From: a bacterium
Lineage (GTDB): Bacteria > UBA8248
NCBI GenBank assembly: GCA_963692865.2
Contig: OY843592.1
Coordinates: 896,001-960,000, forward strand
Length of the DNA stretch: 64,000 bases
Direction: 5' to 3'
Shown: positions 8,475-59,402 of the stretch, in pieces
Layout of the letters: the number at the start of each line of letters is the position of its first letter
Numbering within the stretch: the stretch's first letter is position 1
Notes under the pieces: generated by a model
Seen by the model: only the letters and a program-made list of their open reading frames with translations
The model's database searches: none
What the model was told of the DNA's origin: nothing
Translations under genes and position numbers: made by a program

Positions 8475-9725
8475 TTGGATATTTTCACCGTCATCGTCGT
8501 CGGTTTCTTCCTCCTTCTGGCGGAGGCGTTGTTCTCGGGCGCGGAGATAGCCATCGTTTCCGCGGATCGCGCCCGCCTGCGGGCCAAGGCGGAGGGCGGG
8601 AACAAGGGCGCTCATATCGCGTTGCAACTGCTGGAGAAACCCGAATGGCTCATGGGCACGATTCTCACCTGCCATAACGCGAGTTTCGTAACGAACGTCT
8701 CCCTGGCCACCATAGCGGCCATCAATTTCGTCGGTCCCGCATACGGCGAAATCCTTTCGGTCGTCCTCGTGATTCCGCTCCTCGTGGTGTTCGGCGAGGT
8801 GGTTCCCAAGGGCTATTGCCAGGCCCGCGCCGACGCGCTCGCACCTATGCTGGCGCGCGTCGTCTGGGGCGCCAGGGTGATCGTGTATCCCCTGGTGTGG
8901 CTCATCAGCGCGCTTATCGGCGCCGTTTTGGGGCTGAGAAGGCGCAATGGCGAGAGCACCCCTTTCGTCACGCGGCAGGAACTCGAATCGCTGGTGGAGG
9001 AGCAAAGCGACGGAGACGTGCAGGTTCTCGAACGCCAGATGATCGGCCGCATCTTCACGTTCGGCGAGTTGGACATGGAGAACGTGCTCGTGCCCATCGT
9101 GGACCTCTCGGCGGTGGATGAGGAAGGCACGGTGGAGGAGGTGATCCAGCGAATCGAGGACGACGGCCACTCGAGGATTCTGATCTACAGTGAAAACCTG
9201 CACCACATCGTCGGCGTCGTCCACGCGAGGGACATTATCGGCCTGGGGCCCGACGCCGCGGGACGATTGAAGGACAAGGATGACCTCATTCGAAGCGCTT
9301 ATTTCGTGCCGGAGACGAAACCGGCCGACAGTCTTCTCGATGAGTTGATGAGCCGAAAGGACAAGATGGCCGTCGTGGTGGATGAATACGGCGCCTGCAC
9401 CGGCATCGTGACGATGGAGGACCTGGTGGAGGAGATCGTGGGCGACATCGCCGATGAATACGACGTCGACGAAATCCGCCGGTTCCACAAGCTGGGTGAG
9501 GCGCATTACATCGTCGATGCCCGCATGGAGGTCGAGGACGTGCGCGAGACGCTGGAGTTGCCCTTGCCCGACGGGGACTACGAGACGTTGTCGGGCTATC
9601 TTCTGGGACGGTTCGAGCGCATCCCGAAAGAGGGTGAGAGCGTATCCCTGGAGGAGTGGACCCTCACCGTGGAATCGGCGAACGAGCGGCAGATAGAGAC
9701 CGTTCGCTTGGAGCGAAACGACTAG
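8475..9725 (+). CDS. Second CNNM/CorC (hemolysin-family) protein
   Basis: FSGAEIA, FGEVVPK, DEYGACTGIVTMEDLVEEIVGDIADE; TTG start right after the paralog's stop. Confidence 0.9.
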   Translation: MDIFTVIVVGFFLLLAEALFSGAEIAIVSADRARLRAKAEGGNKGAHIALQLLEKPEWLMGTILTCHNASFVTNVSLATIAAINFVGPAYGEILSVVLVIPLLVVFGEVVPKGYCQARADALAPMLARVVWGARVIVYPLVWLISALIGAVLGLRRRNGESTPFVTRQELESLVEEQSDGDVQVLERQMIGRIFTFGELDMENVLVPIVDLSAVDEEGTVEEVIQRIEDDGHSRILIYSENLHHIVGVVHARDIIGLGPDAAGRLKDKDDLIRSAYFVPETKPADSLLDELMSRKDKMAVVVDEYGACTGIVTMEDLVEEIVGDIADEYDVDEIRRFHKLGEAHYIVDARMEVEDVRETLELPLPDGDYETLSGYLLGRFERIPKEGESVSLEEWTLTVESANERQIETVRLERND

Positions 9726-10193
9726 GAGTTGTTGAAAAGTCCTGAACTCGTGATTCGGCGTATGCAAACAACCCGGGAGGGCGTGGTAGCGGACGGGCCC
9801 CTGCGCCTGTCCGGGGCCGTAGCCCGTCCTTTCGAGGGGGTTCGGTTTTGTTTGTCATTCCGGCGTCGGAACCGGCCGGGGAGGGAGGTCGAACCCGATT
9901 GACGAATGAGGGTTCGGCGCGACTGACGAGAAGCAAGAAAACCACTCCCCCCTTGGGGGGGAGTCAGTGAGCTGAGGGCGTAAGCCCGAAAGCGAACTGG
10001 TGGGGGGTATAATTCGGAATGGCAATAAAACGCATTTTTACCCCCCACCGGTTCAGCCTTCGCACAAAACGCTCGGCTTCACCGTCGGGCATTCCCCTCG
10101 GGATGCCCGACCCTCAAGGGGGGAGTGGTTGTTGGGCGCTCTGCAAGGGGAGAATGTATGGGCCCGGCCCGTAACAGGCTTTTCAACAACCCC
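9725..10193. mobile_element. TIR-bounded non-autonomous composite repeat (MITE-like), copy A
   Basis: Ends GGAGTTGTTGAAAAG / CTTTTCAACAACCCC; interior has a GTAG REP (9786-9813), a truncated GTCATTCCGGCG (9854), a GGTCGAACCC hairpin (9887-9916) and a CACTCCCCCC module (9940-10130). Confidence 0.75.
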
Positions 10194-10257
10194 GTACGGC
10201 TGGCGCGTGGCGCGCTCTCGATGGCGCGAAAACGATTTTTTCGGCGGATGAGTTCCG

Positions 10258-11322
10258 CTAGATGGTTTCGGGCGGCTCGACGCCCAGCCAGCCGCCTATC
10301 ATCTCGAGCGCCTCCCACTGGCTGGCTTCATAGGGGATGCCGTTTTTCTCAGCGTCCGCTTTTTTGCGCGCCTCGCGCTCTCCCGGAAGGAGCATCTCCG
10401 GCCCCCCGCAGCTTTTGATGTCCCGCACCGCATCGGCCAGACGCTTTTTCGCGTCCTCCATTGGATATAGCGCGTCCAGCCTCCAGGCCTCAATCGTCTG
10501 GGTGATGCGGGCGTCGGGCCGGACGCGCAGTGTCGGAATATGCCGCGTCGAGCCGCCGCCGATGACGCCGTCCAGATCCACCAGAACGGCGAGACCGGAG
10601 CCCTTGTAGCCGAAATGCGTTCCTCCCAGGGGGAGAACGGAACCTTTGAGTAATTCGTCATACGGCACGTGGCCGGAAATGACCTCTCCGTTCTCATCAA
10701 GAAAATAATCGTCCGGTATCGCCTCTCCCGCGCGGCTGGCGCGAATGGCGGGGCTCACGGCGCGCTGCGTGGTGGCCACGTCGATGACGACGGCCCGATC
10801 CCCCGCGGGCACTCCCCAGGCGATGGGGTTCGTGCCCAGCCGAATCCTGTTTCCGCCGAAAGGCTTCATCCACGCGCCGGAGGTGCACGTGGCGCGGCCG
10901 GCGAGACCCCGTTCGGTGAGCGCCTCCACGTACACGCACGCCGCCCCGAAGTGATTCGCGTTGTGCACATAGACCTTTCCGATGCCGTATTCTTCCGCCA
11001 AATCGCCCGCGAGGCGCGTCGCGTCCATCGCCGCCGCCGGGCCGATGCCGGCTTGCGCGTCCATGGCGGCGACGGCCCGGTTTTCGTTTCGCTCGATAAT
11101 CGGCGTGGCTTTGGGGTCGATGGCGTCTTTCTGAATGCGCTCGACGAGTTCGCGCAAGCCCGTCCCGCCCGCCACGCCGTGGCTCGATATTCCGCGCATG
11201 TCCGCCGCCGCGAGGATTTCCGCCGTCACCCTGGCGCGTTCCTCGCAGGCTCCCAGGGCCATGATGCATTTCGTGGCGAAACGCACGAGCGCTTCTTCGG
11301 AAATTCGTTTCGTTTCACTCAT
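10258..11322 (-). CDS. Ldh_2 family oxidoreductase (malate/L-lactate/sulfolactate dehydrogenase-like)
   Basis: ADMRGISSHG, NHFG, LGTNPIA, GYKGSGL, LPGERE. Confidence 0.88.
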   Translation of the reverse strand: MSETKRISEEALVRFATKCIMALGACEERARVTAEILAAADMRGISSHGVAGGTGLRELVERIQKDAIDPKATPIIERNENRAVAAMDAQAGIGPAAAMDATRLAGDLAEEYGIGKVYVHNANHFGAACVYVEALTERGLAGRATCTSGAWMKPFGGNRIRLGTNPIAWGVPAGDRAVVIDVATTQRAVSPAIRASRAGEAIPDDYFLDENGEVISGHVPYDELLKGSVLPLGGTHFGYKGSGLAVLVDLDGVIGGGSTRHIPTLRVRPDARITQTIEAWRLDALYPMEDAKKRLADAVRDIKSCGGPEMLLPGEREARKKADAEKNGIPYEASQWEALEMIGGWLGVEPPETI

Positions 11323-11334
11323 GTAGATGGATTC

Positions 11335-12517: not shown

Positions 12518-12677
12518 TCCCCCGGCTCCTCAGGTGAAAGATGAAAGAAAAACACTTAAGACTTCGGATTGCGCGTACCCCATGCCCTCGGTTTCAAAAT
12601 AGCATGTTTTACTCCACAAGGGTTATGGCGAATCGAGCAGAATACTGAAAGATGGGCATCCCCCGCCGCTCATTCCG

Positions 12678-17034: not shown

Positions 17035-17311
17035 GGGGTTGTTGAAAAAGCCTGCTTTCGTGATTCGGCGAATGAAACCAACCGGGGGGCGTGGGGACAG
17101 GCCCCCGCGCCTGTCCGAGGTCCCTGCGCGACGGCGCGGTTTTGTTCGTCATTCCGGCGAAAGCCGGAATCCATTTGTTTTGCCTTTGTTTTTTCTTTTC
17201 TGACTGATTCTTCCCAATGACGGCGGTGGTCGGTTCCGACCGATGAGGAAGGTCGAACCCGATTGATGAATGAGGGTTCGACCAAGCGGGGCAGGGTTTT
17301 TCAACAACCCC
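17035..17311. mobile_element. TIR-bounded composite repeat, copy B
   Basis: Perfect 15-bp IR GGGGTTGTTGAAAAA / TTTTTCAACAACCCC; shares its left arm, REP, GTCATTCCGGCG (17148-17173) and GGTCGAACCC hairpin (17251-17283) with copy A; flanks ATTA/GTTA. Confidence 0.8.
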
Positions 17312-23411: not shown

Positions 23412-23432
23412 GCGCGACACCCGGCCTGGAGG

Positions 23433-24042
23433 GGGGTTGCTGAAAAAGTCCTCATTTCGTGATTCGGCGTATATAGCCGACAGGGGACAGCGGAAACTTT
23501 ACTCCTCCATTACAGAGCGCCAACCAACCACTCCCCCCTTGAGGGTTGTTGAAAAAACCCCTCCTTCCTCCGAGTTGACTACCGCCGTCATTCCGGCGAA
23601 AGCCGGAATCCAGAGCCGAGGAGAATGGCGACGCTCCGGTTTTTCATCCCCTACTCATTGACGGGAATCCAGAAGAAATAAACAAAAACAAAAGCAAAGT
23701 CCCTGGATTCCGGCATGCGCCGGAATGACGATCAAACCCCGTCCCGATCGTTCTCCCCCTGCCTTTATGGGGTTTCCCTCTCAAAGGGGTTGCCTTTACC
23801 CTGTCAGGGGGTAAAGGCGATGCCCCCGATGAGGGGGGTGGAAGAAAAGCCCCCCTGATAGGGGGTGCTGAAAAAGTCCTTTCCGCCTCATCCTGAGTAG
23901 CGGCGAAGCCGCGTATCGAAGGATGCCCTCTCGCCCCGACGGAGGCGTTCGATTCCCCTCGTCCTTCGATACGCCGCCTCCGGCGGCTACTCAGGGTGAG
24001 GGAAGAGGCGTTGGCGGTTTGCGGGACTTTTTCAACAACCCC
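23433..24042. mobile_element. Stacked TIR-bounded composite repeat, copy C
   Basis: Left-type ends at 23433, 23542 and 23861, one right end at 24042; contains half a CACTCCCCCC module, a GTCATTCCGGCG pair (23586-23730) and a CTCATCCTGAG pair (23886-24001). Confidence 0.75.
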
Positions 24043-24139
24043 TGGAGAGGGCGTTTTCGCTCCCGGTTATCTCCGTCAGGATTCGTTGATCAAGCAGGTA
24101 ATCTTCCGGTATTCGTGCTCGCGTGAAGAAAACGCTCCG

Positions 24140-41117: not shown

Positions 41118-41169
41118 TCAATGGGGGGTAGGGGGGGTGGTTTTCGGGCGAAAGGCTGTTTTCCGGCGT

Positions 41170-41489
41170 CCCTCGATACGGCCCTTGCGGGCCTGCTCGG
41201 GCGGGGCGGGGATTGCCCCCGCGCATGGTTCCGCCCGTCGCGCCGGAACCCTCTCGTCCGGCATCCCGCAGGGGCGGTTCGCGAACCGCCCTCCTTCCCG
41301 AACGGGGGAAAATCCCGGCCTTAAGGCGAAATATCGGCGGCTTATCCTGCAATAGACGGGGCAAATCCAATCGATAAGGACGTGTCGAAAAACCCCCGCG
41401 CGCGACCCCTGCAAACCGCCAACGCCTCTTGCCTCACCCTGCTTAGCCGCGATCGAAGGGGACGCTCCCTTCGACGGGCTCGGGACGAC
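41170..41489. repeat. Degenerate repeat debris (half CTCAYCCTGAG modules, GCAG REP)
   Basis: 41170-41207 matches 49082-49118; GCAGGGGCGGTTCGCGAACCGCCCT at 41268-41292; 41411-41441 matches the reverse complement of about 23993-24022. Confidence 0.65.
41314..41357 (+). repeat. Direct repeat, copy 1 (about 40 bp)
   Basis: CCCGGCCTTAAGGCGAAATATCGGCGGCTTATCCTGCAAT(AGAC). Confidence 0.9.
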
Positions 41490-41609
41490 ACATAACATGA
41501 CGACCGACCAAAGCCTTGCCCTTCCCCGTCCATTTCCATTACACTTCATGTGCTTCGAGTGCTTCATGCCGGATGAAAATCAGTTTCGCCGCTAAGTGGA
41601 AGCCCGCTC

Positions 41610-42197
41610 ATGTCTGCCATATCGACGCAACTTTTCAATATCGTCGTCGAGTCCATGAAAGGGAATTTCGTTCTGGTCTTGGCGGGACTTGTTGTGCTTG
41701 CCGTTTTAGTGACATACCGGTTCACGAAATGGAAAACGGAAGTCGATCTTGCAAGAACTGATTTGCAAACCAGATTCGATGCCCTGAGAACGGACCTGAA
41801 GGAATTCATGCAGGAAATACGGGATGATATCAAGTCCATTCGAGGGCGGCTGCCTCCCCAGGCGATTGTATCGGAAAGCCCTCTTCGTCTGACTGATTTT
41901 GGAGAAAAAATCGCCGAAGAAGTACAAGTGGACGAATGGGTTTCAGGATACGTAGAGGAGTTGTTGAATCGCGTAGCGGACAGCACCCCATATGCGATTC
42001 AGAAGTTGTGCTTTGATTACGCCCAAAAAGAACTTCTTGTCGATTTGAAAAAAAACTCCCCCGACGCTTCATGGGAAGAGACGTTCAAGGCGGCCGCGTA
42101 CAATAATGGGGTTAATTTGGCCCAGGTAATGGACGTCGTCGGCTTGGTGCTCCGGGACAAATTGCTGGAACTGTTGAATATCGACCGGCCCGAGTAA
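41610..42197 (+). CDS. Hypothetical protein: N-terminal TM helix, coiled coil, SPLRLTDFG domain
   Basis: Clean 195-aa ORF, more AT-rich than flanks; hydrophobic FVLVLAGLVVLAVLV. Confidence 0.7.
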   Translation: MSAISTQLFNIVVESMKGNFVLVLAGLVVLAVLVTYRFTKWKTEVDLARTDLQTRFDALRTDLKEFMQEIRDDIKSIRGRLPPQAIVSESPLRLTDFGEKIAEEVQVDEWVSGYVEELLNRVADSTPYAIQKLCFDYAQKELLVDLKKNSPDASWEETFKAAAYNNGVNLAQVMDVVGLVLRDKLLELLNIDRPE

Positions 42198-42229
42198 ATC
42201 GCCGGCTTTCATGAAGAGGATTCGTTCTC

Positions 42230-42535
42230 GTGAATCACCACCCTGTCGTAGTCATCCGTCTCCACGTGCGCCGGGAAGAGCAATTGGTGGATATGGCGCA
42301 AGAATTCGAACTGTCCGAACTTGGCGGAGCCGTTCCGGTAGCCGGAGATTTGATTGTAGAACCGGGGGTTCCGGAGCGGAAAGACCGATTCGATCCGGAT
42401 AATCGAACAATCTACGAAGTCGTTTCACGCTATTTCTTGCCTCGCGCGCACGGCGAAACGGTTACGTACGTAGCCGTCGTCGTGGAAGAACGGCAGGCAT
42501 TGGCGACTGAAAAATCCATAGTTTGCATTTCATAG
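42230..42535 (+). CDS. Hypothetical protein (101 aa)
   Basis: GAGGA RBS before GTG; protein-like composition; follows the 41610 ORF. Confidence 0.5.
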   Translation: MNHHPVVVIRLHVRREEQLVDMAQEFELSELGGAVPVAGDLIVEPGVPERKDRFDPDNRTIYEVVSRYFLPRAHGETVTYVAVVVEERQALATEKSIVCIS

Positions 42536-42655
42536 GGCGAGTGTTCATGGCGGACGAAAACCCCGATGCCGTCCAGCCGAAAAGCGAATGTCGCCGCCGC
42601 CGGACGCCCACGGGAACTTGGCCCGCGCATATGAACAAGACCCCGCAACTCATCC

Positions 42656-42714
42656 CCCGGCCTTAAGGCGAAATATCGGCGGCTTAGCCTGAAATGGGTG
42701 ATAGTGGAATAGAC
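42656..42714 (+). repeat. Direct repeat, copy 2
   Basis: CCCGGCCTTAAGGCGAAATATCGGCGGCTTAGCCTGAAAT; 38/40 identical to copy 1, with AATAGAC resuming after a 15-bp insert. Confidence 0.9.
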
Positions 42715-42722
42715 TTTTGCGG

Positions 42723-43625
42723 CTAAAACTTGTCCACAGGCAAGTAGGCCTCGCCAGTTTGAGAGGCATGTCGCCTTATGCGTTCAACGACATCTTTGAA
42801 ACTATTCGTCCCGAGCAATACTTGGTATAGATGATTGTGGTCAAGCAGAAGAAGGGGTGTTTTTTTCCCGGATGCCTCTTCTATCGCGACCGATGTGTAC
42901 CCTGACATCGAGACGAATACACCCATTGTATTGTCCGCCTTGCTTTCAACTTTCGACCGAAAAACATCGATATCAGGTGCTCCAGTCTGATCGTTCGTGA
43001 ACTTACATTCAACGAGATAAGTTGTATCGCCTATCGTAATTGAGCCGTCAATTTCACGTCCCTTCGTTTTGTATGGCGACCGCGATGTAATTTCGCTGAA
43101 ATCCATCAACTCATAGAACCACTTTTCGAACTCTTTGCCTGCAGAAGCTGCTCCCATCTCATCTGCAAGTTCGGCAAGTTTGTCACTGAGCGATTGGAGT
43201 GTTTCCTGGGACGCGCGGGTTTGAGCCTGACTCTCGTGGAATTTCTTGCGGGCCTCCTGCTTTTGTTTCTCAGACGTTAGTTGCTTATCCTGCCTTGATA
43301 GAAAACTCCGTAGCGTACTGACCGCTTGTTTAGCGGTCTTTATTTTCTTTGAGCTGTCTTCCCAGTTCTCAAGGTCTGGAAAAGATGTCTGTTCCGACAG
43401 GAAATGGGCGAGTTCGATAATCTTTCTCTTTCCTTGTTCAGTTTTCTGTAGAGACTCGAAAGCACGCGAGATGTAATCTCTCTTTGTTTCATCAGGAAGC
43501 CATGAGGGCAGGCCCGGCAAGTTTGCTGCTTTCAGAAATGCCGAAAGAGCCTTTTTGCGCCAGAAAGAATGAAGCGCAGCCTCGAAAGTAAGACTGATGA
43601 GGTGGGGGGTAAGTTGTGTCTTCAC
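42723..43625 (-). CDS. Mrr-like (PD-(D/E)XK) restriction endonuclease
   Basis: GKEFEKW...EIDG...YLVECKF...GVFVSMSGYT..A; low GC. Confidence 0.82.
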   Translation of the reverse strand: MKTQLTPHLISLTFEAALHSFWRKKALSAFLKAANLPGLPSWLPDETKRDYISRAFESLQKTEQGKRKIIELAHFLSEQTSFPDLENWEDSSKKIKTAKQAVSTLRSFLSRQDKQLTSEKQKQEARKKFHESQAQTRASQETLQSLSDKLAELADEMGAASAGKEFEKWFYELMDFSEITSRSPYKTKGREIDGSITIGDTTYLVECKFTNDQTGAPDIDVFRSKVESKADNTMGVFVSMSGYTSVAIEEASGKKTPLLLLDHNHLYQVLLGTNSFKDVVERIRRHASQTGEAYLPVDKF

Positions 43626-43914
43626 CTTAAATACTCGCTAGCATACTTTTATATAATCGACCAAAAGGAACTCCAAGTATCATTTTAACGCCAAACTAGC
43701 AAAGAAATATAATCTAATCTCGCATCATCCGTAACCTTATTTATGGTACAAAACATAAGTTTTTGTCTTAGACGAGATGATACTAGTGGTTCATTTTATT
43801 GCGTTCTATTCGATGGCATGCCTTGAGAATGACGCTCCCATTGTGAACCGGGCGGCGGGTGGGGTATACCTTCGGGCATGAGGCGCTTTGAACCATACGG
43901 GGAGTCGCAGCGGC

Positions 43915-46900
43915 ATGGCCGGGGATGATCCGCGCGCGAACATGGAGGCCGCCTTTTCCGGCAGCTTGTTCGCGGGCGGCTTTCTGGAGGCCGGCATCGC
44001 CGACGAGGACGAGTGGAAGGAATTCGACGATTCCGCGCTGGACGCCCTCGAAAGCGATCTGCGGAAAATCTTCGACGCCTTCCCGATAGGCGGCTCGCCC
44101 AACGAGAGCCAGACGGAAGACGACCTCATCTGGCGCGTCCTTGGACGCCTCGGGTGGGAGTCGCACCTTCGCCAGCAGAATCTCTCCGGCCGCGGCAGGC
44201 GGGACGTGCCAGACGGCCTCCTGTTCGAGAACGAAGCGGAGAAGGCGAAGGCCAACGCCGTCCCGGAGGGGCCGGGGCGCTACGGGTTCGGCCTCGCCGT
44301 GGTGGAATCCAAACGCTGGGAGCGTCCGCTCGACCGCCGCTCCGGGAGTGAACCCTCCCCGCAATTTTCCCTCGACTTCGCCCATGATCCCGAGAGAACC
44401 AAAAGCCCCCCCGTCCTGGAAACCGCGCCCTCCACCCAGATGCTCCGCTATCTGAGGCGCCTGGACGATTTGACGAGCGGCAAGCTCTGCTGGGGCATCC
44501 TCACCAACGGCGCGCAGTGGCGGCTCTATTTCGCAGGGGCGCGCTCGGTCTCCGAGCAATTCTTCGAGGTCGATCTCGCGCGAGTCTTGAACCTCCCCGG
44601 CCCCGGCGAGGGATTGTTCACCTTTCCCGAAGACGCTCGCCGCCGTTGCCTGCGGGTGTTCGCGCTCATGTTCCGGCGAGAAGCCTTTCTGCCGCTCTCG
44701 GCGGAATCGCGCACGTTCCACCAACTCGCCATGGATCAGGGCCGCCGCTACGAAAAGCGCGTCGCAGACAGTCTTTACGAACAGATATTCCAGGACAGGC
44801 AAAAGCGGGACAAGCAGGAAGAGAATCCGATTTTTCCCGAACTCGTCGCCGCCATCGCCGCCGCCGCGCCCGATGCGCAGCCGCCGGAGGTGCGCGAGGC
44901 CGCCCTGGTTATCCTCTACCGCTTCTTGTTCATCCTCTACGCCGAGGATCGGAACCTCCTGCCCGTCCGCGATTCGCGCTACGACGATTACGGCCTGCGA
45001 ATCAAGGTGCGCGACGATGTCGGGCGGCGCAAGAATTTGAAAGATACGTTCTCGACGAGCGCGACCCCCTACTGGTCGGCGTTCGAGGATCTTTGCCGAA
45101 TGATTGACGCGGGCGACGCCTCCATCGGCCTGCCGCCCTACAACGGCGGGCTCTTCGACCCCGAGCGCACGCCGCTTCTTAATCAGATTCGGCTTTCCGA
45201 TCAGATAATGGCGAACGTCATCGACGTGCTCTCCTTCGAGAAAACCCCGCAGGGCCGCCGCTACATCAACTACCGCGATTTGGGCGTGCAGCAACTGGGC
45301 TCCATATACGAGCGCCTGCTGGAGCAGGATGTCGTCCGCGTCGGAAACGATATCGAGGTCCGCCTCAGCCCCTTCGCCCGCAAAGGGTCGGGCAGCTACT
45401 ACACGCCCGACGATCTGGTCGGCCTCATCATCGAGGAGACGGTGGGGCCGCTCGTGGACGCGCGCATGGAAGCGTTCAACGCCCGTGTTTCCGATGCCGA
45501 CGCGGATGAGCCGCCCGAAGCCTCGAAGCTGGAGGAACTCGAAAGGCTCGACCCGGCGGAGAGGATTCTGGAGCTTAAAATCTGCGACCCCGCCATGGGT
45601 TCGGGGCACTTTCTGGTCAACCTCGTGGACTATCTCGCCGACCGGGTCATCGAGGCCGTGGCCGAGGCGCAAACCGTTGTAGGGGGCTACGTCTCGCCGC
45701 TGACCGGGCGGATCGAGGAAATCCGAAAGACGATCATAGCCGGCGCCGAGAAAGGCGACTGGCTCGTCGATGCGGCGCAACTCGACGACCGCCACGTCGT
45801 CCGCCGCATGGTGCTCAAGCGCTGCGTCTACGGGGTGGACAAAAACCCCATGGCGGTGGAACTCGCCAAGGTCGCGCTCTGGCTGCACACCTTCACGGTG
45901 GGCGCGCCGCTCGGCTTTCTGGATCACCACCTGCGCTGCGGCGACAGCCTTTTCGGTTCATGGGTGAGCGTGGGAGTCGAGAGGGCGCCTGCTTCGCTGT
46001 TCCTGCACGAGTCCATAGAGCGGGCGACGAAAGCGGCGGCCCCCATGCGGGAGGTCGAGCGACTGACCGACGCCGAGATCGCCGAGGCGCACGAATCCGC
46101 CGAACGCTTCGCCGATGTGGAGGAAGGAACCAGGCCGCTCGACGCCTTTCTCTCCCTGCTTCACGCCCTCGACTGGCTGAAACCCGGAGAGAAAGAGGAA
46201 AAAGACGCGCTTCGCGATTTCTTCTTCGGCTCATTCGGCGATCCGGTCGGGATCGCTATGGGTGAAGCGCCCAAGAAAAAACGGGGAGTGAGACGCCTCG
46301 CCGCTCTATTGGAGAAGGCGCGCGCCCTTATCGGAGAGGAACGCTTTCTCCACTGGCAGGCGGCGTTCCCGGGCGTATGGTCGCAATGGGAAAGCAAGGA
46401 GCGCAAGGGCGGTTTCGACGCCGTTATCGGCAATCCGCCTTGGGACCGCGTGAAGCTGCAACAGGTGGAATGGTTCGCCGCGCGGCAGCCCGAGATCGCC
46501 CACGCCCCCCGCGCCGCCGACCGCAGGCGGATGATCCTCGATCTGGAGAAGGCGGAAGACCCGCTCGCTTATGATTTCGCACATGCGAGCGAACGCGCAA
46601 AGGACACGGCGCAGATGGCGAGAGCCTGCGGCGACTACCCTCTACTATCGGGCGGCGACGTGAACCTCTATTCGCTCTTCGTCGAGCGCGCCATGTCGCT
46701 GGTGAAGCCGGACGGCATGGTCGGCCTCCTCACGCCCTCCGGCATCGCCTCGGACAAGACGGCGGCCCGGTTCTTCAAGGGCGTGGCGACGGAAGGCAGG
46801 CTGAAGGCTCTCTATGATTTCGAGAACAAGAAAGTCTTCTTTCCCCATGTTCATGCGTCGTTCAAGTTCTGCGTGTTCGTCGCAAGTCCATCGCCAATCG

Positions 46901-48102
46901 AAGAGTCCGCCGAGTGCGCTTTCTACCTTCACGGTGTCCCCGAACTAAAAGCTACCGAGCCTGCGCGCCGCTTTGCGCTGAGCGCGGATGACTTCGCCCG
47001 GGTAAATCCCAACACGGGCACCGCGCCCATCTTCCGCACTGAGCGGGACGCGGAACTCACCAAAGCGATCTACAAACGCCTGCCGGTTCTGGTGAATCGC
47101 TCGTCGGGCCAGGAAGTAAAGACGTGGCCGGTGAAGTATTCGACCATGTTCCACATGGCCAATGACTCGGGCCTGTTTCGCACGCAGGAGGAACTTGAGA
47201 AGAACGAGAGAGCCTGGCCCATAGGCGGCAACCGCTACCAGAGCGATGCAGGGGACTGGGTTCCGCTCTACGAAGGCAAGATGGTGCAGGCGTTCGACCA
47301 CCGTGCGGCCGATGTAACAGTGCAAGACGCAAATCTTTTTCGCCCTGGGCAACAGGAGGCACTCACGGCCCAGAACAAGCAAGATTTTGGCCGCTTTCCG
47401 AGACCACGCTACTATGTTCAAGTAAACTCAGGAAGGTGGCATTGGAGCGATTCTTGGGTTATCTCCTTCAAGGATATTACGGCGGCAACCAACATGAGGA
47501 CGATGATTGCAGCCATTATGCCCAGAGCCGGGGCAGGACATACGCTTGCTTTACTCCCTATGGATCACAACACAACTGATCGAATGACACTAGCAAGTCG
47601 AATAGTCGCGAATTTGAATGCTTTGCCGTTCGATTTTGTCGCCCGGCAAAAAGTGCCTACAACTCACTTTACTTGGTACGTCTTGGAACAACTCCCCGTA
47701 GTTCCGCCCAAAACTTTTGACGCCACTTCTTTCGGCCCCAAAACCGCCGGGGAGATCGTCCGCGAGGCCGTGCTGGAACTTACCTACACCGCGCACGACA
47801 TGGCGCCCTTCGCCCGGGATATGGGCCACGTCGATGAAGCGGGAGAAGTCTTGCCTCCCTTCGCGTGGGACGAGGAGCGCCGTCTCCATCTTCGCGCCAA
47901 GCTGGACGCCGTTTTCTTTCATCTCTACGGCGTTACCGACCGGGACGACGCGCGCTACGTCTACTCCACCTTCCCCATCGTCGAGCGTGAGGAAGCTAAA
48001 AAGTATGGCGACTACCGCTCGCGCGAGTTGTGCCTCGCCTGGATGAACGCGCTGGCCGCAGGCGCGCCCGACGCGGAGGTCAGCCTCCAGCGCCCTCGTT
48101 GA
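43915..48102 (+). CDS. Type IIG restriction-modification fusion (Eco57I-like REase + N6-adenine MTase + TRD)
   Basis: PDGLLF...VVESKRW and LTNG..WR nuclease motifs; LGSIYERLL, GSYYTP, DPAMGSGHFL, GVDKNPMAVELAK, GNPPW. Confidence 0.92.
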   Translation: MAGDDPRANMEAAFSGSLFAGGFLEAGIADEDEWKEFDDSALDALESDLRKIFDAFPIGGSPNESQTEDDLIWRVLGRLGWESHLRQQNLSGRGRRDVPDGLLFENEAEKAKANAVPEGPGRYGFGLAVVESKRWERPLDRRSGSEPSPQFSLDFAHDPERTKSPPVLETAPSTQMLRYLRRLDDLTSGKLCWGILTNGAQWRLYFAGARSVSEQFFEVDLARVLNLPGPGEGLFTFPEDARRRCLRVFALMFRREAFLPLSAESRTFHQLAMDQGRRYEKRVADSLYEQIFQDRQKRDKQEENPIFPELVAAIAAAAPDAQPPEVREAALVILYRFLFILYAEDRNLLPVRDSRYDDYGLRIKVRDDVGRRKNLKDTFSTSATPYWSAFEDLCRMIDAGDASIGLPPYNGGLFDPERTPLLNQIRLSDQIMANVIDVLSFEKTPQGRRYINYRDLGVQQLGSIYERLLEQDVVRVGNDIEVRLSPFARKGSGSYYTPDDLVGLIIEETVGPLVDARMEAFNARVSDADADEPPEASKLEELERLDPAERILELKICDPAMGSGHFLVNLVDYLADRVIEAVAEAQTVVGGYVSPLTGRIEEIRKTIIAGAEKGDWLVDAAQLDDRHVVRRMVLKRCVYGVDKNPMAVELAKVALWLHTFTVGAPLGFLDHHLRCGDSLFGSWVSVGVERAPASLFLHESIERATKAAAPMREVERLTDAEIAEAHESAERFADVEEGTRPLDAFLSLLHALDWLKPGEKEEKDALRDFFFGSFGDPVGIAMGEAPKKKRGVRRLAALLEKARALIGEERFLHWQAAFPGVWSQWESKERKGGFDAVIGNPPWDRVKLQQVEWFAARQPEIAHAPRAADRRRMILDLEKAEDPLAYDFAHASERAKDTAQMARACGDYPLLSGGDVNLYSLFVERAMSLVKPDGMVGLLTPSGIASDKTAARFFKGVATEGRLKALYDFENKKVFFPHVHASFKFCVFVASPSPIEESAECAFYLHGVPELKATEPARRFALSADDFARVNPNTGTAPIFRTERDAELTKAIYKRLPVLVNRSSGQEVKTWPVKYSTMFHMANDSGLFRTQEELEKNERAWPIGGNRYQSDAGDWVPLYEGKMVQAFDHRAADVTVQDANLFRPGQQEALTAQNKQDFGRFPRPRYYVQVNSGRWHWSDSWVISFKDITAATNMRTMIAAIMPRAGAGHTLALLPMDHNTTDRMTLASRIVANLNALPFDFVARQKVPTTHFTWYVLEQLPVVPPKTFDATSFGPKTAGEIVREAVLELTYTAHDMAPFARDMGHVDEAGEVLPPFAWDEERRLHLRAKLDAVFFHLYGVTDRDDARYVYSTFPIVEREEAKKYGDYRSRELCLAWMNALAAGAPDAEVSLQRPR

Positions 48103-48971: not shown

Positions 48972-49644
48972 AGGGTTGTTGAAAAAGCCCTGATGCAGCG
49001 TAATTCCTCTCCTCTTCCTGCGCTGCCCGCCGCTCCGCCTCACCCTGAGTAGCCGCCGGAGGCGGCGTATCGAAGGGGCGCCCCTCGATACGGCCCTTGC
49101 GGGCCTACTCGGGACGAGGAGGTTTCTCGCTTTCGCCTTTCATCAGGGTTCCTGCGCGTCGGCGGGGAATGAAACGCCGCCGTGTATTCGCCCGTAACCG
49201 CAGATTGCCGTCATTCCGGCGAATGCCGGAATCCGGAGCCGAGGAGAATGGCGACGCCCCGGTTTTTCATCCCCCACCCATTGGGGCTGTTGAAAAACCC
49301 CTTGCGGGCCGGTCGGTATCTCACCGTAGGGGCCGCATATCATGCGGCCCTGCCTTTTCGCCTTCACAATACGGGTCGCATGATATGCGACCCCTACGGG
49401 TAAAACGTGGTTGATGCGAGAGGGATAGGTTTTTCAACAACCACCCATTGGCGGGAATACAGAAGAAAAAAACAAAGGCGAAGTCCCTGGATTCCGGCAG
49501 ACGCCGGCATGGCGAACGAAACCGCACCACCTCGCAGGGGCAGGTCGCGACCTCGGACGGGCGCGGGGGCCTGTCCGCTACCGCCCCCCTCCCCGGTCGG
49601 CTCCATACCCGGAATCACGAAATCGGGACTTTTTCAACAACCCC
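48972..49644. mobile_element. TIR-bounded composite repeat, copy E (inverted relative to A/B; extra degenerate end to about 49672)
   Basis: AGGGTTGTTGAAAAAGCCC / GGACTTTTTCAACAACCCC; CTCACCCTGAG pair 49038-49119, GTCATTCCGGCG pair 49210-49514; right arm is the reverse complement of the A/B left arm. Confidence 0.78.
49283..49444. mobile_element. Nested TIR element carrying a GTAG REP doublet
   Basis: GGGGCTGTTGAAAAA...TTTTTCAACAACCAC inside copy E; CCACCCATT duplicated at the junctions; REP pair at 49324-49399. Confidence 0.78.
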
Positions 49645-49708
49645 TTGTCAGGGGGGCTTTTTCAACGGCCACGTATGCGGCTCCTGTGCGCCCCCTCGAA
49701 TGACGACC

Positions 49709-49816
49709 GCAGGGGCGGACCCGTGTGTCCGCCCGCCTTTGGGTATCCGCCTTATCGCGATCAGGGAAGATGGAACATGGCGAACGCATAGGGCGGACAC
49801 ACGGGTCCGCCCCTGC
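49709..49816. repeat. REPIN-like doublet with a perfect 26-bp inverted repeat
   Basis: GCAGGGGCGGACCCGTGTGTCCGCCC ... GGGCGGACACACGGGTCCGCCCCTGC. Confidence 0.85.
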
Positions 49817-50082: not shown

Positions 50083-50110
50083 GCAGGGACAGGCCTCGAC
50101 CTGTCCCTGC
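50083..50110. repeat. Single REP-like palindrome
   Basis: GCAGGGACAGG-CCTCGA-CCTGTCCCTGC, 11-bp stem. Confidence 0.7.
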
Positions 50111-54384: not shown

Positions 54385-54411
54385 GGCGGTACCCATACAC
54401 CCCAAAACATC

Positions 54412-54495: not shown

Positions 54496-57390
54496 ATGAG
54501 TACCCAAAGCGCAGCTTCCCCCGCCGTCTCCCTGATGGAGGACATCCGCATCGAGGGCGCGCGGGAACACAATCTCAAGGACATCTCCCTCAAGCTCCCG
54601 AGGGAGCACTTCATCGTCGTCACCGGGCCGAGCGGTTCGGGCAAGTCCTCCCTCGCGTTCGACACCATCTACGCCGAGGGCCACCGCCGGTACGTGGAGA
54701 GCCTCTCCACCTATGCGCGGCAGTTCCTGGAGCGCGTGGACAAGCCCGACGTGGACTACATCGAGGGCATCAGCCCCGCCATCGCCATCGAGCAGTACAA
54801 CCCGGTGAACCATTCGCGCTCCACGGTGGGCACGGCGTCGGAGATTTACGACTACCTCAGGCTGCTCTTCGCCAAGGCCGGGAAGATTCATTGCCCCGAT
54901 TGCGGGAGCGAGGTCACGCCCGCCACGGTCGACGGCACGGTGGCGCTCCTGTTGAACGCCTACGAGGACGCGAGAGGGTTCATACTTTTCCCGATGGGTG
55001 AGCTCGAAGCGGAGGATTTGCCGGGAGAACTCGAATCCCTCATGGGGCAGGGCTACGTCCGCGTGATGTTGGACGATGAAATCGTGAGCATCGGCCCCCC
55101 GCTTTTCGAGAGATTGAAAAAAGAAGCCGAACCGCCGCCCGAAGCGAAGAAGCGGGGCCGTCTTCGCAAAAAAGAGCCTCGAGATGAAAGCCCCGCCGTG
55201 CGGAACCATCATGCCGTTCGGGTCGTGGTGGATCGCCTGAAGCTCTCGCCCAGAAACCGCGCGCGCCTGGGCGAATCGCTGGAGACGGCGTTCCGCGAAG
55301 GCGGCGGCGTCGCCGAAGTGCAGCTCGTGGACGGTCCGAGGCTGCGCTTCAGCCAGAAGCTCGAGTGCTGCGGCCATACGTTCGAAGAACCCGTCCCGCA
55401 CACGTTCAGCTTCAACAATCCCAACGGGGCCTGTCAGGAGTGCGGGGGGTTCGGCAACACGCTCAGTTTCGATGAGGCGCTCATCATCCCCGAGCCCAGG
55501 AAGACGCTCGCCCAGGGGGCGGTGGAGCCCTGGGCGCGGCCGCGCTACCGCCGCTATTTCGGCGAACAGCTCCAGGATGCCGCAAAGTCAGAGGGCCTCG
55601 ACATCCACACCCCCTGGGAGAAGATGCCCGAAGACCAGAAGAAAATGGTTTTCGAGGGATCGGGCAGCTTTTTGGGCGTGTACCGGTTCTTCGAGAGGCT
55701 AAAGCGAAGGAAATACAAGGTCTGGGTGCGCGTGATGATCAGGCGCTACCAGAGTCTTCAGAAATGCGCCTCCTGCGGCGGCACGCGCCTGCGTCCCGAG
55801 GCGCTCTGGATCAAGCTGGGCGATCGCACCATCGCCGATATATGCGCCATGCCGGTGAGCGATCTGAGGGAATACTTCGAGGCGCCGCCGCTCACGCCCG
55901 AACAATACACGCGCGCGGGCGACGTCTTGAAGCAGGTGCGCGAGCGCCTCGATTTCCTGCACAAGGTGGGCCTGGAATACCTGACGCTGGACAGGGAGAC
56001 CAGGACCCTGAGCGGGGGCGAGCACCAGCGGATCAACCTGGCGAACCAGTTGGGCGCGCACCTGACGGGCACACTCTACATTCTGGACGAGCCGACCATC
56101 GGGCTGCATCCCAGGGACAACGCGCGCCTCGTGAGCATCCTGAAGGACCTGGTCGATCGGGGGAACACGCTGCTCGTGGTGGAGCACGACCGCGACGTCA
56201 TCGACGAGGCGGACCACGTGGTGGACCTGGGCCCCGGCGCGGGCGAGCGCGGGGGCGAGGTGGTTTTCTCAGGACCCCGGGAAGAGCTCGACTGGTGCGA
56301 GGGGTCGGCGACGGCGAAGTTCCTGAGCGGCGAGCGCGAGATCAACCCCAGGAAGATCAAAAGAGGAGAGAACGGCAGCTTCTCCTGTCTTTCCCTGTTC
56401 GGGGCGCAGGAGAACAATCTGAAAAAGGTGAATCTCCACGTTCCCCTGGGCCGCCTGGTGGCGATAACGGGCGTTTCCGGCTCGGGCAAGAGCACGCTGG
56501 TGCACGACACGCTCTACCCGGCCTTGGCGCGGATTCTCCACGACGGCAAAGGCGCCATCGGCCGCTTCGAGCGGATAGAGGGATTCGATGAGCTTGATTC
56601 CGTGGTGCTGCTCGACCAGAGCCCCATCGGCAAAAGCCCCCGGAGCAACCCCATCACCTACCTCAAGGCCTACGACGCGATCCGGCGCCTGTTCGCCGAA
56701 ACGCCGCTGGCGCGCAACATGGGCTACGGCCCCGGGCATTTTTCCTTCAACACGGCCGGGGGGCGGTGCGAGTCCTGCACCGGAAGCGGCATCCAGAAGA
56801 TAGAGATGCACTTCATGGCCGATATCTTCATCCGCTGTCCCGATTGCGAGGGCAGGCGCTTCAAGCCCCAGGCCATGGAAATCCAGTACAAGGGCAGGAA
56901 CATCCACGACGTGCTGAACCTGACGGTGGATGAGGCCAGCCTGTTTTTCGATCACGTGCCCTCGGTGCTGAACAAGCTCTTGATCCTGAGAGACGTAGGC
57001 CTCAATTACCTCCGGATCGGCCAGCCCGTGAACACGCTCTCGGGCGGCGAGGCGCAGCGTCTCAAGATCGCGGGTCAGTTGGCCGCCAAGCCGCCCCGCG
57101 GCGTGATGTACCTGATGGACGAACCCACGACGGGCCTCCATTTTCAGGACGTCGAGCGGTTGCTGAACGTGCTCACGCGCCTCGTGGGGCTGGGGAACAC
57201 GGTGGTCGTCGTCGAGCATAATATGGACGTCATCCGCAACGCGGAGTGGGTCATCGACTTAGGGCCCGAAGGAGGGGAGGGGGGAGGCCGCATCGTCGCC
57301 GAGGGGACGCCCGAGGAGGTGGCGCAGAACCCCCGCTCGCATACGGGCGGGTTCTTGAAGAAGTATTTCGAACAAGCGGTGGCGGGCTGA
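54496..57390 (+). CDS. uvrA: Excinuclease ABC subunit A
   Basis: [31 protein letters not shown] zinc fingers, two ABC signatures ([21 protein letters not shown]). Confidence 0.96.
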
Positions 57391-58574
57391 TCATCTTAAG
57401 ACGCCTCCTCACGCTTCGGCGCCTTGCGCTGGCCGCTTCGTTACTCCTGGGCCTGTTGTTCGTCGCATCGCGTTTTTCGCCGGGGCTGCGACACCCGGTG
57501 GATTCCCTCCTGATGGCCCAGGGACTCATCGACGCGCGTAGCGGGGGCTGGCTTTCGCTTCTCACGAAGAAGCCGCTAAGAGCCGAAATTTCATTCAACG
57601 GTGTTTTTGCGGATTCCTATTCGCCGGGCGATTCCGTCGGCTGGGGCGATGCGCCCGCGCGCGGCTGCGTCGTCCTGGTTCACGGCATGACGACGATGGG
57701 CAAGGCGGATCATCGTCTCGTGGCGTTCGCGGAGTCGCTCGCGAGGCTGGGTTTTGCGGCGCTCGTACCCGATTTGCCGGGCATGAAGCGGTTTCGCCCC
57801 GAAGAGGCGGACGTCCTGCGCATCGAAAGGGCATTCTCGTGGATGACGCGGGGCGGCGCGGGTTCTTGTGAGAGATGCAGCATTCTGGCGTTTTCCTTCG
57901 CCGCCGGCCCGGCCCTTCGCGCGGCGGCGAGTCCGGCGGTGGGCGGGAAGTTGGTCGCCTTCATCGGCGTGGGCGCCTATTACGATCTCAAGAACGTGCT
58001 GAAACACCTCACCACGAGCAGCGGGCAGAACCGGCCCGCCTTCCCCGGCGGGCTGCCCATCCGCCACGGGAAATGGCTCTTCCTGCGCTACAACACGGAA
58101 CTCCTGGGTTTGGACGCCCATCGGGAGCGCATCGAGGCCATCGTGTCGAGAAAGCGAAAAGACGAAGCGGCGGATATCGGCGATTTGCTCGCGGGCTTGC
58201 CGGAGGATGCGCGGGCCATTATCGCCTTGATGGAGAACAAATCCCCCGAGCGCTTCGAGGCGCTTTACGCGCGGCAAGGGGCCGCACGGCGCGAGCGCCT
58301 GCGGGCATGGGGGATGCGCGATGTCATTCCCGGGGTCGGGGGGAAGAAATTTTTTCTGCACGGGCGTGAGGACCCCTTCGTTCCCCCGTCCGAGAGCATC
58401 CTGCTGGCGAATCGCGCGCGGGAGACCTCGGGCGATGCGGCATCGGCCTTCGTCTTCGGTGGATTTCGCCACGTGGGAATCGAGGCGGACCTCTTTTCTC
58501 TTGCGCAGATTCTGGAAGGCGCGCGCTTTTTGGGATTCATATCCGCCGTCTTGAGCGCGATGGAGGTGAGATGA
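57387..58574 (+). CDS. Membrane-anchored alpha/beta hydrolase-like protein (start uncertain)
   Basis: TM segment, LVHGM, ALVPDLPG, AFSFAAG, HGREDPFVP, late His. Confidence 0.7.
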   Translation: MIILRRLLTLRRLALAASLLLGLLFVASRFSPGLRHPVDSLLMAQGLIDARSGGWLSLLTKKPLRAEISFNGVFADSYSPGDSVGWGDAPARGCVVLVHGMTTMGKADHRLVAFAESLARLGFAALVPDLPGMKRFRPEEADVLRIERAFSWMTRGGAGSCERCSILAFSFAAGPALRAAASPAVGGKLVAFIGVGAYYDLKNVLKHLTTSSGQNRPAFPGGLPIRHGKWLFLRYNTELLGLDAHRERIEAIVSRKRKDEAADIGDLLAGLPEDARAIIALMENKSPERFEALYARQGAARRERLRAWGMRDVIPGVGGKKFFLHGREDPFVPPSESILLANRARETSGDAASAFVFGGFRHVGIEADLFSLAQILEGARFLGFISAVLSAMEVR

Positions 58575-58667
58575 GGAGTTGCGCTCGCCCTCGCTCCGCA
58601 TGGCGCGGCGGGGGAGCGATGTAGTAGGCTACGGGCGGATTTTTCCTTATGCCAAGAGGGCGTCGTC

Positions 58668-59126
58668 ATGATCGAGCGAAGCGCCATCACACGGACGGCG
58701 AACGCGCAATGGATGGGGGATATGCGCGCGCGGATTCAGGCGCGCGATTGCCCGGAGTTCGCAAGCGATGAGCCCGTGGAGCGCGGCGGCCTGTTCGAGC
58801 ATCCCACCCCCGCCGAATACATGCTCGGCGCGCTGACGGGCTGCGGCGCCGCGCACGTGGAGTTGTTCGCAAAAGAAGTCGGCATGCCGCTCGATGACTG
58901 CGCCATCGAGGGGCGGCTCACGATGGAGCGCTTCGCGCCCGGCGACCCGCACGCGGAGAACGGGGGCGTCACCGGCGTGGAGCTTGAGATAGAGGTGACT
59001 TCGGCGGGCTCCGCGGAGCAGCTCGAGGAGGTGAAGGAGAAGTTTCGCGCGGGGTGCATCCTCTATCTGTTCATGAGCGCGGCGACGTGCGTGAACGACA
59101 ACTGGACGCTGAAACGGCCCGAGTAG
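58668..59126 (+). CDS. OsmC/Ohr family protein
   Basis: SDEP...GG, PTPAEYMLGALTGC, second Cys in AGCILY. Confidence 0.85.
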   Translation: MIERSAITRTANAQWMGDMRARIQARDCPEFASDEPVERGGLFEHPTPAEYMLGALTGCGAAHVELFAKEVGMPLDDCAIEGRLTMERFAPGDPHAENGGVTGVELEIEVTSAGSAEQLEEVKEKFRAGCILYLFMSAATCVNDNWTLKRPE

Positions 59127-59135
59127 CGGCCGTTC

Positions 59136-59402
59136 GGGGCTGTTGAAAAAGCCCACAAAAGGAGCGCACCGAATTTCACTCCCCCCTTGAGGGGGAGTCA
59201 ACGAGGCAAGGGCGAAGCCCGCAGGCGAGTTGGTGGGGGGACATGCCACAGAAAAGGCTCCCCTCACCGAATCGGCCTTCGCACAAACCGCTCGGCCTCT
59301 TCGTCTGGCTTTCCCCTCGGGAAGCCAGACCCTCAAGGGGGGAGTGAAATCAAAAGCGTGTGCGCAACTCAAAATTACTTCCCGGGGGTTTTCAACAGGC
59401 CC
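59136..59402. mobile_element. TIR-bounded composite repeat, copy F, with 4-bp target duplication
   Basis: GTTC|GGGGCTGTTGAAAA...TTTTCAACAGGCCC|GTTC; inner module 59173-59350 with a perfect 21-bp IR, homologous to 9940-10130. Confidence 0.82.

Follow-up and report, generated by a model that had tools for sequence, protein, structure and literature searches.

Six intergenic loci within a 64-kb stretch of bacterial DNA (the window) are bounded by the same short sequence, and their interiors are mosaics of palindromic repeats. What are these elements, and how did the mosaics arise? The elements are of a known kind, MITEs of the IS1182 type, in a tangled, nested form. The reading that we favor, with a probability of about 0.65, is that the six loci are non-autonomous MITEs of an IS1182-family insertion sequence (IS) and that their mosaics were formed by hairpin-directed insertion and nesting.

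A shared end motif marks six intergenic loci

The motif GGGGYTGTTGAAAAA, with up to two mismatches allowed, occurred 17 times in the window compared with 0.27 expected, and none of 100 shuffles of the window reached this number. All 17 matches lay inside the six loci and none elsewhere in the window. The initial annotation was thus right that the loci have common ends, and its outer coordinates were correct. A weight matrix built solely from 50 ends of other genomes provided an independent check; it recovered the same 17 ends and gave two further weak matches in the window, at 41378 and 57348. An inverted-repeat search of 40800-42760 returned the ends of locus 4 and nothing else. Loci 3 and 5 hold more ends than had been listed earlier: there are three left ends (23433, 23542 and 23861) and one right end (24042) in locus 3; in locus 5, the left ends are at 48972 and 49283 and the right ends at 49444, 49644 and 49672. 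The end motif is partly self-complementary. The loci are intergenic and several are located directly after stop codons. Their layout is given in Table 1.

Table 1. Layout of the six loci in the window (positions count from the first nucleotide of the window).
Feature	Position	Strand	Remarks
Locus 1	9725-10193	.	Composite, 469 bp; no target duplication
Locus 1, left end	9725-9740		
Locus 1, 'A' subterminal region	9741-9850		
Locus 1, GGTCGAACCC hairpin	9886-9916		
Locus 1, 'C' element	9943-10127		Inverted ends are CACTCCCCCC
Locus 1, 'C2' subterminal region	10128-10177		
Locus 1, right end	10178-10193		
Locus 2	17035-17311	.	MITE, 277 bp
Locus 2, ends	17035-17050, 17296-17311		
Locus 2, 'A' subterminal region	17051-17140		
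Locus 2, one GTCATTCCGGCG hairpin and T-rich stretch	17146-17193		
Locus 2, GGTCGAACCC hairpin	17247-17280		
Locus 3 with flanks	23427-24047	.	Element 23433-24042, 610 bp
Locus 3, duplication TGGAG	23427-23431, 24043-24047		5 bp
Locus 3, left end	23433-23448		
Locus 3, left half of C hairpin	23529-23545		Abuts inner left end
Locus 3, inner left end	23542-23557		
Locus 3, GTCATTCCGGCG...CCGGAATGAC element	23586-23731		146 bp
Locus 3, hairpin	23792-23818		
Locus 3, inner left end	23861-23876		
Locus 3, CTCAYCCTGAG pair	23885-24001		Palindromic
Locus 3, right end	24027-24042		
Locus 4	40876-41117	.	Element of 242 bp; no target duplication
Locus 4, ends	40876-40891, 41102-41117		
Locus 4, GTAG-type REP hairpins	40919-40980, 41001-41020, 41053-41076		Interior
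Locus 5	48972-49672	.	Outer ends without shared duplication
Locus 5, left end	48972-48987		
Locus 5, CTCACCCTGAG module	49037-49113		
Locus 5, GTCATTCC element	49207-49282, 49445-49515		In two pieces
Nested MITE in locus 5, with flanks	49278-49449	.	Element 49283-49444, 162 bp; order: end, two inverted GTAG REPs, end
Nested MITE, duplication CCATT	49278-49282, 49445-49449		
Locus 5, inverted 'A' subterminal region	49516-49628		
Locus 5, right end	49629-49644		
Locus 5, second right end	49657-49672		After a 6-nt spacer
Locus 6 with flanks	59132-59407	.	MITE 59136-59402, 267 bp
Locus 6, ends	59136-59151, 59387-59402		
Locus 6, 'C1' subterminal region	59152-59176		
Locus 6, C element	59177-59346		170 bp
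Locus 6, duplication GTTCG	59132-59136, 59403-59407		Holds if one G of the terminal run is counted as flank

The ends belong to IS1182-family insertion sequences

The related loci used for comparison are a small, non-random sample: of the 118 stretches listed, most match by chance and come from unrelated phyla, and 18 share repeats with the window. The 15-16 nt ends of the window elements are the ends of full IS1182-family ISs. Two such ISs were found at loci of related metagenome-assembled genomes (MAGs), L028 and L052. The first (L028:3083-4447) is 1365 bp long and encodes a 430-aa transposase that matches NCBIfam NF033551 (308 bits, cutoff 270) and the Pfam families DUF772 and DDE_Tnp_1_6. 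The second (L052:1494-3015) is 1522 bp long with a 480-aa transposase, 66% identical to that of L028 by tblastn; it has the ends GGGGTTGTTGAA(T/A)AAC, is flanked by the duplication GAAGA and is located within a CACTCCCCCC (CACTCC) element. Annotated IS1182-family elements on Sinorhizobium and Bradyrhizobium plasmids (L119 and L120; protein identity 63-66%) have the same type of end (GGGGCTGTTGAAGAAG and GGGGTCGTTGAAAAAG) and the duplications TACGT and CGCGT. All of the full ISs with these ends, from MAGs and rhizobia alike, have 5-bp target duplications. The resemblance to IS1182-type ends that had been suspected is therefore confirmed, and full ISs with the same terminal inverted repeat (TIR), a search proposed at that time, are present in the related MAGs.

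Beyond the terminal repeat, the 'A' ends of the window gave weak scores against the L028 IS (z 1.3-4.2, p 0.003-0.17); similarity in this region was clear by eye solely for ends from outside the window (L075, L021 and L016). Over both MAG ISs, the window elements reached z values of 2-4 at best; this weak similarity counts against the reading that we favor, and descent from these two ISs in particular is no more than possible. A Pfam search of 50 ORFs and a tblastn search with the L028 transposase found no transposase gene in the window, so any movement of these elements must occur in trans; the lack of such a gene likewise counts against our reading.

Target duplications and an empty site

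The initial annotation had asked whether the elements are flanked by target duplications. Duplications of 5 bp are present: they were perfect at 9 of 30 candidate end pairs compared with 2.1% of 1018 cross-locus control pairs, and the GTTCG of locus 6 comes on top of these nine. Among the seven end pairs of the window, three have a duplication (23433-24042, 49283-49444 and 59136-59402). No duplication is present at the remaining four, which are the pairs of loci 1, 2 and 4 and the outer ends of locus 5, and this counts against the assignment to IS1182-type MITEs; the flanks of locus 2, GATTA and GTTAC, show no clean duplication.

One copy in the window has inserted into a different repeat, of which the window also contains an uninterrupted copy. 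The element at 49283-49444 interrupts a GTCATTCC element; the intact paralogue is at 23586-23731, where 23640-23680 is the empty counterpart of the filled site. In locus 3, L075 and L101, an outer duplicated pair is accompanied by inner ends of the same direction. Comparison of the window with the related loci by tblastx returned the repeats and one 43%-identical ferredoxin stretch, nothing more, indicating that there are no orthologous loci among them.

The interiors are built from recurrent modules

As first described, modules recur in other orders and orientations, for example 10110-10143, which matches 23546-23513 (inverted) at 94%. The interiors are indeed mosaics, but they are not all different, since loci 1, 2, 3 (left) and 5 (right, inverted) have 55-180 bp beside the end in common and loci 1 and 6 have a 170-bp element in common. 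Most window modules are present in other genomes at 80-100% identity, and the same modules are also found outside TIR pairs, both in related loci and in the window. The small elements form several recurrent subfamilies, also present in other genomes, and are not cargo carriers with random interiors. The earlier contrast with classical MITEs, by which these elements would lack a conserved interior, is half right: there are several subfamilies, but each is conserved across genomes. Single-linkage clustering of the subterminal sequences was kept merely as a listing because families were lumped via shared modules.

The six loci make up 4% of the window and contain 16 of its 39 perfect hairpins (stem of at least 8). 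Folded end to end, all elements of a reduced set were structured relative to mononucleotide shuffles (z -5 to -10.5; locus 2, z -8.5). An Rfam search of the whole window gave no family match, and there are no tRNA genes in the window. A search for RAYT, GIY-YIG or DUF559 genes flanked by the modules had been suggested; no match to RAYT/Y1_Tnp, GIY-YIG or DUF559 was obtained in the 50 window ORFs or in 77 ORFs beside related loci.

Ends are enriched at half-hairpins

The ends preferentially abut hairpins formed by a C-run, 5 nt and a G-run, and they are enriched next to half-hairpins. A run of at least four C, 3-7 nt outside the end, was present at 21 of 66 ends, whereas GGGG sites used as controls had it in 128 of 1620 cases (p = 2e-8), and the counts for a 4-6 nt spacer were 24 of 66 and 177 of 1607, with control sites that include the hairpin repeats themselves. 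The junction of cactccccccttgag with GGGG is common to five ends in five loci, the right flank of locus 4 reads CCC-TCAAT-GGGGGG, and L002 holds a complete insertion in a C-run/G-run hairpin with the loop duplicated. Two observations count against hairpin-directed insertion: the C-run context is absent at 45 of the 66 ends, and several duplicated sites (GAAGA, ACTTG and TTGAT) are without a convincing hairpin. For IS1272 and TnSha1, both of the IS1182 family, published accounts (PMC5678879, PMC4923244) describe stem-loops as insertion targets, along with outcomes that vary, end sequences that are duplicated and the use of a surrogate end.

Origin of the mosaics

Under the reading that we favor, a DDE transposase encoded elsewhere would move the window MITEs in trans. 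This transposase would prefer a C-run, about 5 nt and a G-run, as in the loops of G+C hairpins and at the junctions of resident elements. Because of this preference, new copies would enter palindromic repeats and older copies, and the probable outcome is repeat hubs of nested and tandem elements. Chimeras, with an outer pair and extra inner ends, may be generated by deletion between ends of the same direction or by pairing of an outer with an inner end; the data cannot tell these two sources apart. Target choice and nesting would then have produced the mosaic interiors as a side effect, and no dedicated cargo-collecting system would be at work. Target choice on its own does not account for the REP pairs inside the duplication-flanked element at 49283-49444, and these pairs count against this reading. 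A bolder version, which we put forward only tentatively, is a self-nesting engine that shuffles repeats through the C-run/N5/G-run preference, junction sites and re-pairing of ends, with host palindromes carried along. Each insertion would create two new C-run/N5/G-run sites at its own junctions, outer/inner re-pairing would keep yielding composite MITE subfamilies with REP pairs and other modules, and one module set would be common to several species-level genomes. Such an engine resembles the repeat shuffling proposed earlier, but target choice would drive it.

The initial annotation regarded the repeats as cargo. In that scheme, which we think rather unlikely, an inward-facing end pair moves as a unit, and carriers pick up the repeats lying between (REPs, CACTCC, GTCATTCC and CTCAYCCTGAG elements) and spread new composite MITEs. 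Composites with inner ends and perfect 5-bp duplications (23433-24042, L075:3001-3459 and L101:301-548) are consistent with this. So are a REP pair that the window and L098 have in common at 93% identity, each time between other subterminal sequences, and the right part of locus 6, which has an 82% match of 247 bp in L047, whereas the two loci have unlike left parts. According to passages in PMC4923244, the surrogate end of TnSha1 lets an IS1182-family transposase move neighboring DNA. However, no composite was found twice with identical outer structure. From the proposal that a DDE transposase moves repeat cassettes in trans, the transposase family and the lack of a transposase in the window are retained, whereas movement as a unit is at most a possibility. 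The junctions shared by L041 and L075 and by the window and L062 have different upstream parts, which fits independent insertions at one hairpin type, and deletion between same-direction ends yields the same architecture. The presence of modules outside TIR pairs, the enrichment of ends at half-hairpins and the stem-loop insertion described in passages of PMC5678879 and PMC4923244 make the repeats at least as target-like as cargo-like. We therefore do not uphold the collection of repeats as cargo; "collect and shuffle" is possible as a secondary effect only.

The polarity could also be the reverse, with the interior repeats (REP/REPIN and other small palindromes) as the active elements. They would preferentially enter existing MITEs, or insert in the same permissive stretches between genes, and the TIR elements would be passive landing pads. 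The 146-bp GTCATTCC element, the 170-bp CACTCC element and the REP pairs have inverted ends of their own, modules occur alone in related loci, and the repeats cluster in few long intergenic regions. Yet in the only case within the window where the polarity is clear, it is the TIR element that has entered a GTCATTCC element, and the full L052 IS lies within a CACTCC element. With no duplication found around interior modules and no RAYT or other mobilizing gene in the 50 window and 77 neighboring ORFs, we consider this improbable. Least probable is that the motif is a structural or regulatory signal of the host, such as a terminator-like hairpin or a protein-binding site, or an assembly artefact, and not a transposon end. 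Although the position of the loci between genes, in several cases just past stop codons, and the partial self-complementarity of the end would suit such a signal, full, transposase-encoding ISs have the same ends, the 5-bp duplications greatly exceed chance, the window contains a filled site as well as its empty counterpart, and no Rfam family matches the window. The ISs and the duplications already contradict this explanation.

Relationship to known systems

Like bacterial MITEs, the window elements are short, non-coding and present in many copies, with the inverted ends and duplication length of an IS family and long hairpin folds; they differ in having several unrelated cores on one end pair, heavy nesting and chimeras. 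GTAG-headed hairpins in inverted pairs, as in REP/REPIN-RAYT systems, occur at 49326-49397 and in locus 4, but here the REP pairs are enclosed in TIR elements that have flanking duplications, and there is no RAYT gene among the examined ORFs. Neisseria intergenic mosaic elements, Correia elements and E. coli BIMEs are also intergenic hubs in which a few palindromic modules occur in varying order. These mosaics are not known to have ends of the IS1182 type, and other mechanisms have been proposed for how they are put together. The GTCATTCCGGCG-N4-CCGGAATCC hairpin presumably resembles the neisserial dRS3 type; in the Neisseria elements, dRS3-type inverted repeats of 20 bp bound the repeat blocks.

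The terminal type GGGG(Y)TGTTGAA(A/G)AAG is the same as in IS1182-family ISs (IS1272 and the Sinorhizobium and Bradyrhizobium plasmid copies), from which the window elements differ in being 162-610 bp long and encoding no transposase. Stem-loops as probable sites of insertion and the duplication of end sequences agree with the descriptions of IS1272 in PMC5678879 and PMC4923244. IS1272 reportedly leaves no duplication and deletes part of the hairpin, whereas we found both duplications and half-hairpin junctions without them. TnSha1, in which IS1272 and a surrogate end move sh-fabI, provides a precedent for a non-canonical second end and for hairpin targeting (passages in PMC4923244), but it contains a gene and its own IS, and the window elements contain neither.

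A search of the open literature, with subscription journals and ISfinder outside its range, returned no description of this element family. With the present analysis, mosaics between genes that were otherwise puzzling are placed in a named family of transposons, and a testable cause for them is proposed, hairpin-directed insertion. If the rule of CC-N5-GG, hairpin loop or junction holds genome-wide, the stem-loop targeting of IS1272 would extend to a distant, duplication-making branch of the IS1182 family, and the target rule would explain the build-up of repeat hubs in these uncultured lineages. The elements also break assemblies, as several related copies among the matches listed are at contig ends. 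At gene ends, the elements may replace terminators.

Ends and repeat content of the window

The 64-kb window contains 17 matches to the end motif GGGGYTGTTGAAAAA at two or fewer mismatches, compared with a mean of 0.27 in shuffled sequence, and none of 100 shuffles reached this count. All 17 matches lie inside the six intergenic loci named in the initial annotation, whose outer coordinates were correct; its list of ends per locus was incomplete, the full set being three left and one right in locus 3 and two left and three right in locus 5. A weight matrix trained solely on 50 ends from other genomes recovered the same 17, together with two further weak matches (41378 and 57348) barely over the shuffle maximum. 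Comparison of the window with itself yielded 24 pairs of repeats, almost all of them inside the six loci or directly adjoining them, bearing out the module families that had been proposed. These loci make up 4% of the window and contain 16 of its 39 perfect hairpins (stem at least 8). Contrary to the earlier claim, some of the interiors are related: loci 1, 2, 3 (left) and 5 (right, inverted) have 55-180 bp beside the end in common, and a 170-bp element is present in both locus 1 and locus 6.

Related loci and full-length IS1182-family elements

We scanned genome contigs with the end pattern and obtained at least 118 stretches, most of them chance matches in unrelated phyla. Among the matches listed, 18 of 118 have repeats in common with the window (77-100% identity), a small sample chosen through the end motif itself. 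These 18 belong to MAGs with the titles Nitrospinota, Nitrospinaceae or just "bacterium" and have no genes in common with the window. In one stretch, L069, which belongs to a different species-level genome and has no genes in common with the window, 71 bp of a CACTCCCCCC element (1-71) are 100% identical to window positions 59171-59241. In another, L031, a 634-aa ankyrin-repeat protein (22-1926) adjoins a related repeat locus.

Among these related loci, L028 and L052 each carry a full insertion sequence (IS) delimited by window-type ends (terminal inverted repeats, TIRs). The L028 protein matches the IS1182-family transposase model NCBIfam NF033551 (308 bits, cutoff 270) and Pfam DUF772 and DDE_Tnp_1_6. 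The L052 IS is located within a CACTCCCCCC element. A protein search of a plasmid collection returned, from Sinorhizobium and Bradyrhizobium, genes 63-66% identical with the annotation "IS1182 family transposase"; the elements there have ends GGGGCTGTTGAAGAAG and GGGGTCGTTGAAAAAG and 5-bp duplications TACGT and CGCGT. The earlier guess that the ends are of IS1182 type was therefore correct. A Bacillota MAG (L017/L018, 254-2169) contains a 1916-bp IS whose 15-nt ends are identical but whose transposase reaches only 27-39% identity; there, conservation of the ends far exceeds that of the protein. The end is thus conserved across a wide part of the IS1182 family. Beyond the end, similarity between the window elements and the L028 and L052 ISs is weak.

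Positions of the six loci, duplication-flanked elements and full ISs
Feature	Position	Length	Duplication	Remarks
Locus 1	9725-10193			
Locus 2	17035-17311			
Locus 3, duplicated element	23433-24042		TGGAG	
Locus 4	40876-41117			
Locus 5	48972-49672			
Duplicated element in locus 5	49283-49444	162 bp	CCATT	
Locus 6, duplicated element	59136-59402		GTTCG	direct reading; right end too diverged for the regular expression
Full IS	L028:3083-4447	1365 bp		430-aa protein
Full IS	L052:1494-3015	1522 bp	GAAGA	480-aa protein, 66% identical to the L028 protein

Evidence for transposition

We looked for target duplications at every left/right end pair with a spacing of 60-3000 bp, 30 pairs across the window and related loci, with ambiguity in the terminal G run allowed in scoring. 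Perfect 5-bp duplications flanked 9 of the 30 pairs compared with 2.1% of 1018 cross-locus control pairs. Duplication was absent at four of the seven window pairs: those of loci 1, 2 and 4, and in locus 5 the outer pair. The 162-bp element splits a GTCATTCCGGCG...CCGGAATGAC element, of which an intact 146-bp copy lies at 23586-23731; thus, the window contains filled and empty versions of one site. All elements fold end to end into long hairpins (z -5 to -10.5, mononucleotide shuffles). The window elements are a real family of IS1182-type MITEs, small transposase-less IS derivatives. The Pfam scan found no transposase among the 50 window ORFs. The earlier idea of a transposase acting in trans holds, and we infer such action in this genome.

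Probable target choice and the origin of the mosaics

The initial annotation attributed the mosaic interiors to carriers that collect palindromic repeats as cargo. This is the less likely cause, as modules D, C, F and GTCATTCC are present outside end pairs too in related loci, and the window has perfect hairpins of REP-like type that no TIR pair encloses (41272-41291; 49713-49734 and 49791-49812, spanning 49713-49812; 50083-50110). The flanks are also non-random. A run of at least four C lies 3-7 nt outside 21 of 66 ends versus 128 of 1620 control GGGG sites (p = 2e-8), forming a small hairpin with the terminal GGGG; for a spacer of 4-6 nt the counts are 24 of 66 ends and 177 of 1607 controls. 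The C-run context is absent at two-thirds of the 66 ends, and several duplicated sites are not hairpins. Finally, an architecture consisting of an outer pair with a duplication and inner ends of like orientation, every one of them after a C run plus about 5 nt, recurs in locus 3 and in the related loci L075 and L101, and series of same-direction ends likewise occur in L041, L044 and L069. Together these observations point towards target choice over cargo collection. Target choice alone does not account for the REP pairs inside a duplication-flanked element. The outside REP-like hairpins share long intergenic regions with loci 4 and 5.

Individual junctions illustrate the proposed choice of site. 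The same junction, cactccccccttgag followed by GGGG, occurs at five ends, each in a different locus; cactccccccttgag makes up the left arm and loop in the CACTCCCCCC hairpin. L002 has a complete insertion in a hairpin of this type, with the loop TTGAA(G) duplicated. At L042 (3000-3257) one element follows another, tail to head, after 5 nt (TCCTC); the second has its own duplication (TCCTC/TTCTC), so its insertion site was precisely the junction of the first. Junctions common to L041 and L075, and to the window and L062, have differing upstream parts, as would be expected if one type of hairpin had been hit repeatedly, not if a composite had moved.

A transposase encoded elsewhere would move the window elements, favouring C-run/N5/G-run sites that each insertion would remake at its own junctions, so that copies would pile up within one another as well as in palindromic repeats. 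Chimeras may have arisen by deletion between same-direction ends or by an outer end pairing with an inner end; the data fit either. Against this mechanism weigh the lack of a transposase in the window, the missing duplications at four of its seven end pairs, the weak similarity to the two ISs beyond the end, the duplicated sites that are not hairpins, the ends lacking a C run, the enclosed REP pairs and the small, motif-selected sample of related loci. PMC5678879 and PMC4923244 describe matching traits for IS1272/TnSha1 of the same family: insertion into stem-loops, outcomes from partial hairpin loss through to a duplicated loop or a duplicated stem-loop as a whole, one end repeated in tandem, and use of a surrogate end. 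A review cited by both states that some IS1182 members target palindromes. Among the papers searched, nothing relevant was found on the motif or on MITEs in such symbionts. The nesting behaviour of IS1182-type MITEs merits genome-wide scrutiny.

Genes and neighbourhood

At 61% G+C, the window looks like ordinary chromosomal DNA, and its scanned genes include tolB, pal, ligA, bipA, SHMT and uvrA-like genes. RAYT (REP-associated transposase), GIY-YIG and DUF559 genes were absent from its 50 ORFs and from 77 ORFs beside related loci, and Rfam and tRNA scans of the window gave no match. The locus-1 end shares its first base with the stop codon TAG (9723-9725) of a CNNM/CBS/CorC gene (8475-9725), so the insertion lies exactly at the end of this gene and may have replaced its terminator.

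Two restriction-modification neighbourhoods were observed, one with an Mrr-like nuclease adjoining a 1404-aa Eco57I-type enzyme (42723-48102) and one with a XamI-type nuclease adjoining an Eco57I-type methylase (61645-63905). A solitary 964-aa UvrA-like protein (54496-57390), in which ABC and UvrA DNA-binding domains are present, follows hydantoinase A/B genes. ORFs at 41118-42197 and 57246-58574 had no Pfam match. The 41.1-42.7 kb region, where the weak end-like match at 41378 lies, also has a 40-bp direct repeat (41314-41353 and 42656-42695, 95%).
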